Source of the DNA: an uncultured Acidimicrobiales bacterium | GTDB lineage: Bacteria > Actinomycetota > Acidimicrobiia > Acidimicrobiales > VFJN01 | Assembly: GCA_963830865.1 (NCBI GenBank) | Contig: CAWHNU010000011.1 | Span: forward strand, 605,210-669,209 | Direction of reading: 5' to 3' | DNA length: 64,000 bases | Shown: in pieces, positions 47,462 to 51,711 of the stretch | How positions within the stretch are numbered: position 1 is the stretch's first letter | Layout: each line of letters starts with the position of its first letter | Translations under genes and position numbers: made by a program | Notes under the pieces: model-generated | Seen by the model: only the letters and a program-made list of their open reading frames with translations | Databases searched by the model: none | Told to the model about the DNA's origin: nothing

Positions 47462-48022
47462 ATGGCGAGCAAGCAAGGGTCCGGTCAGGGCGACGGCGAC
47501 ACGGCGGAGCGGATCGCCGAGGTCAAGGGCGACGTCGAGCGCCTCTTCGGGAGGTACATCACGGCCGACCCGGAGGTCGGGGGCGAGGGCTTCGAGCTGG
47601 AAGCAGGGTTCGGGGACGGCGGATCCGTCACCGGATCCGCGGCGACGGGCCAGTTCACTTTCGTCCGGTGGCGGTGGCGGGGCCAGCACACCGGGAAGGT
47701 CGGCCGGTTCGACGGCGAGACGTTCGACAAGCGCAACCCGGACTTCTTGATGGCCCAGGGCACGGGCAACGCGGTCACCGTCGAGGGGCTCACCATCCTG
47801 GAGGAGCGGCCCGACGGCATCTACCCCCGCCGCTTCGTCGACTGGCTGAGCGTCTACTCGCAGCTGGGCATCGTCGCACCGGCCCGTCCGATCGGCCGGG
47901 CCAGCACGGAGCTGCGCGACCCTGCCAGACCCCAGCACCCTCAAGCCTCCCGTCGACCCCCGGGACGGACTGGACGACGGGAGGCCACCGGCCAAGACAG
48001 CGTCGTAAGCGTGACGACCTGA
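47462..48022 (+). CDS. SnoaL-like/NTF2-fold (ester cyclase-like) protein
   Basis: GAGGAAGGAAG lies before ATG 47462. FTFVRWRWRGQHTGKVGRFDGETFD...NAVTVEGLTILEERPDGIYPRRFVDWLSVYSQLG. The C-terminal ~45 aa are of poor quality. Confidence 0.6.
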   Translation: MASKQGSGQGDGDTAERIAEVKGDVERLFGRYITADPEVGGEGFELEAGFGDGGSVTGSAATGQFTFVRWRWRGQHTGKVGRFDGETFDKRNPDFLMAQGTGNAVTVEGLTILEERPDGIYPRRFVDWLSVYSQLGIVAPARPIGRASTELRDPARPQHPQASRRPPGRTGRREATGQDSVVSVTT

Positions 48023-48111
48023 CTCCGGGTCACCCAGTCCCGCCGCGTCGCCAGGTCACGCCCCGGCTGTGCCGCGGTCGGCGCCGCCGTCGGCGGGCGG
48101 CCCGCAGCCGG

Positions 48112-48169
48112 GGAACTGGCAGCGGATTCGTACCGCCGGGGCATTGAGCGCTGCCAGAACCGGTGCGCC
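48112..48169 (+). repeat. intact REP-like hairpin unit (empty IS target copy)
   Basis: GGAACTGGCAGCG...CGCTGCCAGAACC arms (9 bp + 2 bp). A second unit is split into 48182-48215 and 49726-49749 by the IS. Confidence 0.75.
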
Positions 48170-48314
48170 GCGGTGCGGCCCGGAACTGACAGCGGATTCA
48201 TACCGCCAGGGCACTGATGCGATGAAGGAGCGGGGCCTCCGCTCCCCGTGAGAACCCAGGTCGGGGAGACTTGGGGCTTCTCACAGCATGTTCCTCACGA
48301 CGAGGGAGGCCCCT

Positions 48315-49328
48315 ATGGGACGACAGTATGTCGGGATCGATCTGCATCGGCGCCGGTCGGTGATCGTGCGGATGACCCAGGCGGGTGAGGTGCTCGACAC
48401 GGTTCGGATCGATAACGATCCGGTGGCGTTGTCGTTGGCGGTCGCCGAGGCGGGACCGGAACCTGAGGTGGTCCTGGAGGCGACCTACGGCTGGTATTGG
48501 GCCGCGGATCTGCTAGAAGCGAACGGTGCCCGGGTGCATCTGGCGCATCCGTTGGGGATGAAGGGCTTCGAGAACCGGCGGGTGAAGAACGACACCCGCG
48601 ATGCCCGGGACTTGGCGGACGTGTTGCGCATGGGCCGGCTGCCCGAAGCGTGGATCGCCCCACCGGAGCTGCGGGAGTTGCGCGAGCTGGTCCGCTATCG
48701 CGCCAAGCTCGTCGCTTTACGCTCAGGGCTCAAGGCACAGGTGCACGCCACGATCGCCAAGCTTGGCGTCCCGGTCCGGGTCACCGATCTGTTCGGCGTG
48801 GCTGGCACCGCCATGCTCGATGACCTCGAGTTGCCCGGCGCGTATGCCCATCGGGTCGGGTCGCTGCGCCATCTGATCGCCGGGTACGACAGCGAAGTGA
48901 CGAGGTTGTCGGAGATGATCGCCGGCGAGCTCGAGGGCCACACGGGCTACCAGGCGGTGCAGGCCATCTGCGGGGTCGGGCCGGTCCTGGCGGCGGTGTT
49001 CGTGGCCGAGATCGGCGACGTGACCAGGTTCCACGGTCCCCGCCAGCTGGCATCGTGGGCCGGGCTCACGCCCCGCCACCACGAGTCCGACACGACCGTG
49101 CACCGCGGGCACATCACCAAACAGGGTTCCCGGCTGGTGCGCTGGGCGGCGCTGGAAGCGGTTGCCCGCCAACGAGGCGGCACCTACCTCCAGGAGCACT
49201 ACCGGGCCCTGACCGAGCGGCGTAACAGCAAGGGCATCGCCAAGGTCGCTATCGCCCGGCGGCTGTTGCATCTCGTGTACTACGGCCTGCGAGACGGCGA
49301 GATCCGCTGCCTCGCCGAGACCGCATGA
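48315..49328 (+). CDS. IS110 family transposase (DEDD/RuvC-like N-domain + C-terminal Tnp domain)
   Basis: GGGAGG lies before ATG 48315. YVGIDLHRRRS, EATYGWYW, KNDTRDARDLA, ICGVGPVLAAVFVAEIGDVTRF, AGLTPRHHESDTTVHRGHITKQGSRLVRW. Confidence 0.9.
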   Translation: MGRQYVGIDLHRRRSVIVRMTQAGEVLDTVRIDNDPVALSLAVAEAGPEPEVVLEATYGWYWAADLLEANGARVHLAHPLGMKGFENRRVKNDTRDARDLADVLRMGRLPEAWIAPPELRELRELVRYRAKLVALRSGLKAQVHATIAKLGVPVRVTDLFGVAGTAMLDDLELPGAYAHRVGSLRHLIAGYDSEVTRLSEMIAGELEGHTGYQAVQAICGVGPVLAAVFVAEIGDVTRFHGPRQLASWAGLTPRHHESDTTVHRGHITKQGSRLVRWAALEAVARQRGGTYLQEHYRALTERRNSKGIAKVAIARRLLHLVYYGLRDGEIRCLAETA

Positions 49329-49725
49329 CCCGGTCCGGACGCAGCCAGAGCGCGAGCCCGCGCAGCGCTCTGATCCCCCACCCGGCGCGATCGCCCATCT
49401 GATTGAGCCCGCCTGGCTGCGGCCGCAACCGCTCCATGCCGAACCTCACGGCGAAGGGATGAGCAGGCACCCGGACCGGGACAGCCTCAAACACCTGATC
49501 GACACGGGTTCTGGAGACGGCCACCACGCGTCCACCCGACGCCCACATCGCCGATTCCGTCGCCGGCCTCAAGGTCGTTCGTCCTCGCTCCGCTGCGGGC
49601 GCTCCACCTTGACCCCGCCGACTCCACCGGCGCGCCCGCACCCAACCCCCCGGCCCTACGGGCCGGCGGAAACGGCCTCGACGTGGTCGACACAGCCCCT
49701 TGCCAAACCCCACTCCTTCAGGGAT
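49329..49725 (+). ncRNA. candidate bridge/seeker RNA region in the long 3' non-coding end of the IS
   Basis: 397 nt with no credible ORF. Contains CAGCGCTC (complement of the right target flank) and ATTGAGC (identical to the target across the insertion point). The assignment is inferred from published IS110-family biology. Confidence 0.3.
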
Positions 49726-49760
49726 GAGCGCTGTCAGAACGGGTGCGCCCCTCGCCGGAC

Positions 49761-50543
49761 CTACAGGCCCTGCCACGGGGGCTTGCCCCGCCACGTCTCC
49801 CGGTAGTGGTCGGCGAGCGCCAGGGCGGACGCCGCCGGCTCGTCGACCACGACCGTGACGTGGGGGTGGAGCTGGAGGGCGGACGCCGGGACCATCGCCG
49901 TCACGGGGCCCTCGACCATGCCGGACACCGCGTCCGCCTTCGCGTCGCCGAAGGCGACGAGGACGAGGTGCCGCGCCTCCAGGATGGTGCCGACCCCCTG
50001 GGTGACGACGTGGCGGGGGACCGCGTCGGGGTCCGGGAAGAAGCGGGCGTTGTCGGCCCGGGTGCGGGCGGTGAGCGTCTTGATCCGCGTCCGGGACGCC
50101 AGCGACGAGCCCGGCTCGTTGAAGGCGACGTGCCCGTCGCTGCCGATGCCCAGCAGCTGGAGGTCCACGCCGCCCGCCGCGGCGATGGCGGCCTCGTAGG
50201 CGGCGCACGCCGCCGGCAGGTCGGCCGCCGTCCCGTCGGGGCCTCGGATCGCTCCCGGGGCGACGTCGACGTGGCGCTCGAAACGATCCCCGACGAACCG
50301 GCGGTACGACTGCGGGTGGTCGGGTCCCAGGCCGACGTACTCGTCGAGCAGGAACCCGCGCACCCGGGCGAAGCTCAGCTCGCCCGCGGCGTGGCGGCGG
50401 GCCAGGTCGCGGTAGACGGCGAGCGGTGAGCTGCCCGTCGCCAGGCCCAGCACCGCGTCCGGCCGTGCCCGCACGAGCGCGGCGATCGCGCCGCCGACCA
50501 GGGCGCCGGCCTCGTCCGGGCAGCCGACGATCACGACCTCCAC
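49761..50543 (-). CDS. nagB: glucosamine-6-phosphate deaminase
   Basis: GAGGAGG lies 7 nt before GTG 50543. LGLATGSSPL, LDEYVG, LLGIGSDGHVAFNEPGSS. Confidence 0.9.
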   Translation of the reverse strand: MEVVIVGCPDEAGALVGGAIAALVRARPDAVLGLATGSSPLAVYRDLARRHAAGELSFARVRGFLLDEYVGLGPDHPQSYRRFVGDRFERHVDVAPGAIRGPDGTAADLPAACAAYEAAIAAAGGVDLQLLGIGSDGHVAFNEPGSSLASRTRIKTLTARTRADNARFFPDPDAVPRHVVTQGVGTILEARHLVLVAFGDAKADAVSGMVEGPVTAMVPASALQLHPHVTVVVDEPAASALALADHYRETWRGKPPWQGL

Positions 50544-51711
50544 GACGCGGCCTCCTCGCGGCGGTCGTCGGCGACGCGGCCGGCGGCGACGGTGGCGACC
50601 AGCCCGCCGCCGGCGTCCACCAGCACGATGTCGGCGACCGCGCCCGGGGCGATCGTGCCCCGGTCCGTCCGGCCCAGCGTGGCCGCCGGGGCCGCGCTCG
50701 CCGCGGCCAGCGCGTCGGCCAGCGGGACGCCGGCGAAGGCGACCAGGTTGCGGACCGCCCGGTCGAGCGCCAGCGTGCTGCCGGCGAGCGTCCCGTCCGG
50801 CAGGCGGACGCCGTCGTCGCCGGCCTCGGCCCACTGCGACGCCAGGCGGACCGGCCCGCCCGGCGCGCCCAGCGCCGCCACCGCGTCGGTGACCAGCGTG
50901 AGCCGGTCGCCCAGGGCGCGGGCGGCGAGGGCGACCACCGCCGGGTCGACGTGGACGCCGTCGGCGATCACGCCGACCCGCACCCGCTCGTCGGTGAGCG
51001 CCACGCCGGGCAGCCCCGGCTCGCGGTGGCCGAGCGGGACCATGGCGTTGAACAGGTGGGTGACGTAGCGGACCCCGGCGTCGATCGCGGCCCGGGACTC
51101 CGCGGCGGTGGCCGACGAGTGGCCCGCGGCCACGACGATGCCCGCCTCGGCCAGGTCGCGCACCACGCCCAGCGCCCCCGGCAGCTCGGGAGCCAGCGTC
51201 ACCAGGGCGACGCCGTCGGACCAGCCCTCGTCCGCGGGCAGCGCCGGGTCCGGCGGCACGAGCCGGTCGGCCGGGTGGGCGCCCCGGCGCTCGCGGGCGA
51301 GGAACGGCCCCTCCAGGTGGAGGCCCAGCGGCACGGCCCGCGGCCGGTCGTCCCCGGGCGGCGGTCCGCGCGCAGCGCCGCCAGCGCCCGGCGGCGCATC
51401 TCGGCCGGCCCGGTCACGATCGTCGGCAGCCACGCCGTCACGCCCCAACGCGGGAGCGCGGCCGCCACGTCCCACAGGCGCTCGGGCTCGCTCGACAGGT
51501 CGACCCCGACCGCCCCGTTGCACTGCAGGTCGACGAGCCCGGGGGCGACGAGCAGCCCGGTGGCGTCGAGCGCCGGCCCGGGCGGGCCCGGCGAGCCCGG
51601 CGGGTCGATGTGGGCGATGCGGCCGCCGGCGATCGCCACGTCGGCGCGGATCGGGCCCGCAGGCGTGAGCACCGTGCCGCCCGCGACCACGAGGTCGGGC
51701 GGCCCGGTCAC
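50531..51711 (-). CDS. nagA: N-acetylglucosamine-6-phosphate deacetylase, one frameshift near 51355
   Basis: GLVDLQCNG, then after a CCCGGGG run LGLHLEGPFL, GHSSAT, VTHLFNAM and DGVHVDP in the adjacent frame. GTG 51711 lies inside cassette copy 2. Confidence 0.8.

Follow-up and report, generated by a model that had tools for sequence, protein, structure and literature searches.

Guide RNAs encoded by insertion sequences of this kind have been described in two groups. Siddiquee et al. (2024, PMC11187229) described seeker RNAs for the IS1111-family elements ISEc11, ISPa11, ISKpn4 and ISPst6, and in the parts of their account drawn on here the transposase mRNA and the seeker RNA are held to be transcribed together from a promoter at the circle junction and then processed. 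Durrant et al. (2024, PMC11208160) and Hiraizumi et al. (2024, PMC11208158) described the bridge RNA of IS621, which belongs to the IS110 group. We believe that a further RNA of this kind lies in the window, by which we mean the whole 64,000-nucleotide stretch of DNA that was analysed. Positions 49330-49516 on the plus strand very probably encode the guide (bridge/seeker) RNA of an intact IS1111-group element at 48217-49726. The RNA appears to belong to the IS1111-type guide mechanism described in 2024; what is new is this member, which is well supported. The sequence-only reading had proposed the 3' non-coding end of the element as a candidate bridge/seeker RNA, and this is borne out by a covariance-model match, by base-pair covariation and by covariation of the guides with the flanks. 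The RNA is confined to the first ~187 nt of that 397-nt end.

The points of agreement with the published seeker RNAs, as set out in those parts of PMC11187229, are several. There, as here, the guide that pairs with the top strand is placed 5' of the one that pairs with the bottom strand, with an overlap between them where the element inserts. The sizes are comparable, with a target module of ~80 nt and an RNA of ~187 nt here and published forms of 70-100 and 145-170 nt. In both, the promoter is at the circle junction and none is internal. REP sequences are a target of ISPa11 as well, and ISEc11 and ISXne4 are a case of natural retargeting between relatives. The differences are that our transposase falls in another, actinobacterial clade and that the RNAs have no sequence similarity; an Rfam 15 scan of 47900-50000 with E up to 10 returned noise only and no bridge-RNA match. 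We also find a guide for the donor tip with a two-base extension into the flank, whereas the same parts of PMC11187229 describe target matches only. The element here is known by computation alone.

Like IS621, the predicted system has an RNA of two modules, one for the target and one for the donor (PMC11208160), and a recombinase with DEDD + Ser catalytic residues. However, the RNA is in the 3' end here and in the 5' end in IS621, the two target guides come in the opposite order, TG takes the place of CT as the core, the donor module forms a three-way junction where that of IS621 is a simple internal loop, and there are long subterminal repeats here. ISPpu9 and ISPpu10, IS110-family elements of Pseudomonas putida, are also described as inserting into repetitive extragenic palindromes and as having a small RNA gene downstream of the transposase gene (PMC12288879, PMC11208160, in the parts of these papers used). 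This likeness is by description only, and the host phylum and the REP family are different.

The stretch 48217-49726 is an intact IS1111-group insertion sequence, and its features are on the plus strand. The transposase gene (48315-49328) encodes a DEDD / IS110 family protein of 337 amino acids, inside the IS1111-group range of 330-350. A Pfam scan finds PF01548 (DEDD_Tnp_IS110, RuvC-like) at the N-terminus and PF02371 (Transposase_20) at the C-terminus, and the protein scores 216 bits against NCBIfam NF033542, 'IS110 family RNA-guided transposase', for which the cut-off is 140. It retains 131 of the 134 clade-conserved positions, defined as those at least 95% conserved among 80 relatives, including D9, E55, D93, D96 and S258. 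Its C-terminus, GLTPRHHESD, has the Gly, Leu, Pro and Ser of the IS1111 motif GL-P----S(t)G with Asp after the Ser, and this ESD is conserved across the whole clade. The left end (48217-48314) consists of a terminal extension, ATGCGA (48217-48222), a subterminal inverted repeat, TGAAGGAGCGGGG (48223-48235), and a leader with a GGAGG ribosome-binding site. The right end (49708-49726) has the other repeat, CCCCACTCCTTCA (49708-49720), an extension GGGA (49721-49724) and the right copy of the core TG (49725-49726). Both ends were placed by an inverted-repeat search and by comparison with relatives. The two 13-bp repeats agree at 12 of 13 positions, the IS1111 criterion being 7-17 bp. The left copy of the core is at 48215-48216, from the junctions of 30-41 relatives; TGA is ambiguous in this copy, and we place the crossover within TG because elements with the right flank TGC... 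exist among the relatives. With 98 nt before the start codon and ~397 nt after the stop codon (49329-49725), the long non-coding side is downstream, as in the IS1111 group. Three mechanical open reading frames overlap this non-coding end, at 49459-49806 (plus strand), 49487-49693 (minus) and 49249-50208 (minus); the first and the last have no Pfam match and both cross the boundary of the element. The right neighbour (49761-50834, minus strand) has a Glucosamine_iso / 6-phosphogluconolactonase-type domain (E 2e-21), and its 3' end faces the element.

The case for the RNA depends on relatives. A DNA search of 80 genomes of the same family found the first ~145 nt after the stop codon conserved at 71-80% beside related transposase genes. 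A scan of one genome per species then gave 80 loci with transposases 64-71% identical, carried by Acidimicrobiia, Mycobacterium, Mycolicibacter, Rhodococcus and other, mostly actinobacterial, genomes. Among annotated relatives the closest are genes on Rhodococcus plasmids that bear no label beyond 'IS110 family transposase', and no IS name was obtained. Most of the relatives share a left end of the form ...yTGA-TGCGA-TGAAGGrGCGGGG and a right end of the form CCCCGCyCCTTCA-GGGA-TGA.... When 34 distinct 3' ends are aligned there is a conserved block of ~165 nt directly after the stop codon, interrupted by a few sharply variable segments.

We built a covariance model from 33 relatives, leaving this window out. 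Against the window it gives a single match, at 49330-49491 on the plus strand only, which is full length and scores 106.4 bits (E 3.7e-24); the next best match within the 64 kb has an E of 0.05. Across 82 sources the model gives 70 matches, one in this window and 69 in relatives, and every one of them follows the transposase stop codon directly. In the covariance-model alignment 92.5% of pairing cells can pair, compared with 30-43% when the partners are slid by 1-3 columns. Both-sided (compensatory) changes occur in 27 of the 36 base pairs, and none of 500 shuffles reached any of the five pairing measures. The covariance-model match and a long-range helix, CUCCA/UGGAG, together give the RNA a span of ~49330-49516, or ~187 nt.

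The structure that RNAalifold produced from a plain MAFFT alignment was poor, so we derived the helices P1-P7 by hand and then checked them by pair counts on the relatives. The predicted RNA folds as two modules, the first with an internal loop between P3 and P4 and the second a three-way junction closed by CUCCA:UGGAG. The target-binding module (49341-49420) is made of P1 (49341-48 with 49413-20), P2 (49350-52 with 49410-12), P3 (49356-59 with 49405-08) and the P4 hairpin (49371-75 with 49389-93), these positions being the consensus structure mapped onto this copy. There are compensatory changes in every helix of this module, and across P1-P7 many pairs have changed in this way among the 33 relatives. 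The donor-binding module (49432-49516) is closed by P5, in which CUCCA (49432-36) pairs with UGGAG (49512-16), and encloses the P6 hairpin (49438-52), the donor guide, the P7 hairpin (49465-87) and a joining strand of 24 nt. P6 and P7 covary, and P5 has four compensatory variants in the relatives: CUUCA/UGAAG, CACCA/UGGUG, UUCCA/UGGAA and CCCCA/GGGG. All helices are intact in this copy.

Single-sequence folding gives a different picture. The stability of the sequence is not above that of shuffles (z -1.37), and the fold pairs the right-target guide with 49347-53, burying it in a stem. We have set this fold aside for the comparative structure, which is only ~5 kcal/mol above the minimum-free-energy fold.

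Three loop segments of the RNA covary with the DNA around the element across 41 independent insertions. It is important to realize that this comparison, and not the matches visible in any one copy, is what decides the matter. The sequence-only reading had noticed three short matches and cautioned that 6-8 nt could match by chance. In 5000 dinucleotide shuffles of the non-coding region, the first match has P ~0.02 when that very 8-mer is required and 0.08 when any 8-mer from the 20-nt flank counts, the second (ATTGAGC) has P ~0.05 and the third (CATCGC) P ~0.5, so none of them is convincing alone.

The first match survives the comparison. This is CAGCGCTC (49363-49370), the reverse complement of GAGCGCTG at 49726-49733, and it lies in a variable loop that covaries with the right flank. 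In the relatives the right-target guide immediately precedes the P4 stem on its 5' side; it is 8-10 nt long and reads as the right flank in reverse complement. In this copy it reads CAGCGCUC and pairs with the top strand at GAGCGCTG over 8 bp, a match that grows to 9 nt on the intact target unit when G49362 is included. Over the seven flank positions beyond TGA, guides match their cognate flanks at 4.85 of 7 and non-cognate flanks at 2.35 of 7, and none of 20000 permutations reached the observed match, whether in the 27-site or the 41-site set; the guide of this copy scores 6 of 7.

The left-target guide, CAUCUGA (49396-49402; CATCTGA in the DNA), covaries with the left flank in relatives. It sits just 5' of a conserved UUGAC/UUGAGC and reads in the same direction as the left flank with the core. 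Among cognate pairs 3.48 of 5 positions match and among non-cognate pairs 2.08 of 5, again with none of 20000 permutations reaching the observed value. In this copy the guide fits its site only over CUGA (4 bp), with 1 of 5 further positions matching where the clade mean is 3.5. The second of the three matches lies next to it. ATTGAGC does occur at 49402-49408 and is identical to 48143-48149 of the intact unit; as a left-target guide it fails. A49402 is all that it shares with the guide; what follows is UU and then the 3' strand of P3 (GAGC, 49405-49408). The homologous GAUUGAC/GAUUGAGC is kept regardless of the target, and its GAGC/GACC changes in step with the 5' strand of P3. The third match, CATCGC, is present at 49546-49551 and is complementary to GCGATG at 48219-48224. 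It is at chance level, its surroundings, 30 nt past the end of the RNA, are not conserved, and it is not the donor guide. In the comparative structure the first match is in the P3/P4 internal loop and ATTGAGC is mostly stem.

The donor guide lies between hairpins P6 and P7. It is a left-donor guide, AGGGAUG followed by AG and by C49464 (49455-49464), equal to the right tip of the element plus the core and then to bases of the flank. In the window the guide is AGGGATGA at 49455-49462, and with the two flank bases (AG, 49462-49463) it is AGGGATGAG = AGGGAUGAG at 49455-49463. The donor 7-mer equals the right IS tip + TG in 41 of 41 sites, the tip being identified independently by the inverted repeat that precedes it, and four versions of the guide (AGGGATG, AGGAATG, AGAGATG and ATAGATG) vary together with the tip. 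The two bases after the 7-mer agree with those that open the right target flank, the first at 41 of 41 sites and the second at 40 of 41, and they mismatch the left IS end, the sequence next in line in the circle. In this copy the identity runs to 10 nt, AGGGATGAGC at 49455-49464 equalling the right junction at 49720-49729; C49464 matches here, yet the third flank position does not covary across the relatives (5 of 30). Two relatives, L066 and L120, have an aberrant right tip, CTTCAGACATCCCAGGGGCCAGGAATG, and in both a match to the donor guide (AGGAATG) lies ~20 nt beyond the inverted repeat, where the right-target guide mismatches the flank.

A second donor guide is suggested by most of the relatives, which have CAUCA on the 3' side of P7, within the joining strand. 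It complements TGATG, made up of the core and the beginning of the left end, and could be a right-donor guide. The motif is absent from 49488-49511 of this copy. We considered CUCCAU in this role and ruled it out, as it forms helix P5.

The clade's code, as these comparisons give it, is a right-target guide of 8-10 nt, a left-target guide of 5-8 nt, a donor guide of 7 nt with two flank-reading bases, and a TG core. Extra dinucleotides match the partner DNA across the crossover, as do the 'handshake guides' of IS621 (PMC11208160, PMC11208158, PMC13626964), except that here they are on the bottom-strand guides, whereas in IS621 they stand beside the top-strand guides. One tentative reading, which we would not bet on, is that both bottom-strand guides of the clade carry two extra bases that read the product junctions, a mirror image of the handshake bases of IS621; the donor guide would do so by its two bases from the right target flank, and the left-target guide by running on into the opening bases of the left IS end. 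If that were true, IS1111-type recombinases could exchange bottom strands first, and the same RNA could be tuned to recognise integrated junctions for excision.

The insertion splits one unit of a REP-like hairpin repeat. The left half of the interrupted unit is at 48181-48214 and the right half at 49727-49750, both on the plus strand and both recognised by their match to an intact sister unit at ~48110-48170. The assembly holds 22 REP-like units containing TGAGCGCTGYCAG. The repeat (48110-48217, 49725-49750) has arms CTGRCAGCG and CGCTGYCAG, and the element stands at the base of the 3' arm. In most relatives the insertion site is yTTGA|CA; in this copy and in one further element (L113) the right side reads TGAGC.... 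The predicted right-target guide is naturally retargeted here, from the clade's usual yTTGA|CA to the right arm of a REP-like unit.

The usual target invites some observations of its own. The yTTGA|CA seen at most relatives (loci L043-L122) resembles a -35 hexamer, and the right junction, ATGACA, nearly restores the TTGACA hexamer that those insertions split. Relatives at this target each carry their own TTGACA, 17-18 nt from a -10 box that spans the junction, and one of them (L087) is inserted into the TTGACA at the right end of another copy.

We found no sigma-70-like promoter in the linear element. There is a -35 box, TTGCCA, at 49700-49705 on the plus strand, and its -10 box, GATGAT, is completed only by the left end. 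The reconstructed circle junction here reads TTGCCA-17 nt-GATGAT, and that of the relatives TTGACA-17/18 nt-GATGAT, so the -35 box of this copy is one base off the consensus. Such a promoter appears in 29 of 29 elements as a circle; across the right junction of the integrated form it appears in 0 of 29. We suppose that the RNA would be read together with the transposase gene from this promoter, which exists only in the excised circle, and that the joint transcript would then probably be trimmed to the RNA. This fits the published view of co-transcription and processing, in the parts of PMC11187229 drawn on here. By analogy with IS621 and ISEc11, the transposase and the RNA would bring the circle junction and the target together and recombine them at TG, with the two bases after the donor guide reading the right target flank.

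In the rest of the non-coding end (49517-49707), a conserved hairpin of 46 nt (TCAAGGTCG...CACCTTGAC) lies at 49569-49614, plus strand, downstream of the RNA, and is 93-98% identical in other loci. Several of these loci adjoin IS110-type transposase genes of only 23-30% amino-acid identity, and a few copies stand alone. The distant IS110-type lineages that share the hairpin have no match to the RNA model at E below 0.001. Its stem shows compensatory changes in relatives, some of which are without the hairpin altogether. One of the supporting loci (L127, genome G290) comes from an unpublished genome; no other result rests on unpublished data. We considered a general genomic repeat and rejected it, there being one copy in the element's own genome and an occurrence in 5 of 401 genomes of the class. 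The hairpin might serve as a terminator, as a site of processing or as a module that binds protein. A motif UGAnCCC(C), conserved in relatives, occurs three times in the non-coding end: at 49371-79, in the 5' strand of P4; at 49403-11, following the left-target guide; and at 49608-16, in the 3' arm of the hairpin. It could be a protein contact. About 15-30 nt after P5 (49530-49545) is a CACAAC-like motif that hardly varies among relatives (CCCACAACC) and has diverged in this copy (CGACGCCCACA).

The explanation that competes best with ours concerns this copy rather than the clade. The RNA homologue would be present, but the copy would be stranded and poorly functional or non-functional, its guides no longer specifying the site that it occupies and its matches mere relics. 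We judge this unlikely as a whole, and there is something to be said for it. The weak left-target guide, the missing CAUCA-type right-donor guide and the altered -35 box all point this way. So does the fact that no repeated site fitting both guides was seen in the element's own genome or in 80 family genomes: an 'ideal' site for both target guides does not occur in the own genome even with 1 mismatch allowed, and it is present once in each of 4 of the 80 family genomes with no sign of a repeat. The element is also single-copy in its own assembly (5.1 Mb), and on that account it may be poorly mobile. However, at only 67% completeness the assembly may lack further copies. The transposase still has its conserved positions and all of its catalytic residues, no helix is broken, and the right-target guide and the extended donor guide fit the junction perfectly over 8 and 10 nt. 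Taking both sides, this copy may be a poor or stranded one, as judged from its sequence, and the guide RNA remains our reading of the locus.

The conserved 3' region might instead be a cis-acting element of the transposase mRNA (stability, attenuation, translational control) with no part in choosing DNA sites. It stands directly after the stop codon, is probably co-transcribed, is without its own promoter and is conserved in structure, all of which suits such an element. Nevertheless there would be no reason for its loops to track the host flanks and the IS tip over 41 independent insertions, and we regard this as very improbable. Least probable of all is that the conservation marks double-stranded DNA sites for the transposase near the right end, for although IS1111 subterminal repeats are thought to be protein-bound, the region begins 380 nt from the right tip, the model matches one strand only, and the covariation keeps the bases paired, also through G-U pairs, which on the opposite strand would read A-C. 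The near-invariant U-G pair in P4 likewise fits an RNA from this strand and not DNA.

We believe this work would extend RNA-guided target choice to a large clade of IS1111 elements in the Actinomycetota, with members in Acidimicrobiia, Mycobacterium and Rhodococcus, that goes unnamed in the annotations examined. The clade's code is defined by 41 natural guide-and-target pairs. This set may be useful for designing IS1111-type recombinases for hosts of high GC content, and it helps to annotate the ends of IS1111 elements, which are hard to find. For the window itself, the result is a full annotation of the element and an account of why it is located in a REP-like unit.
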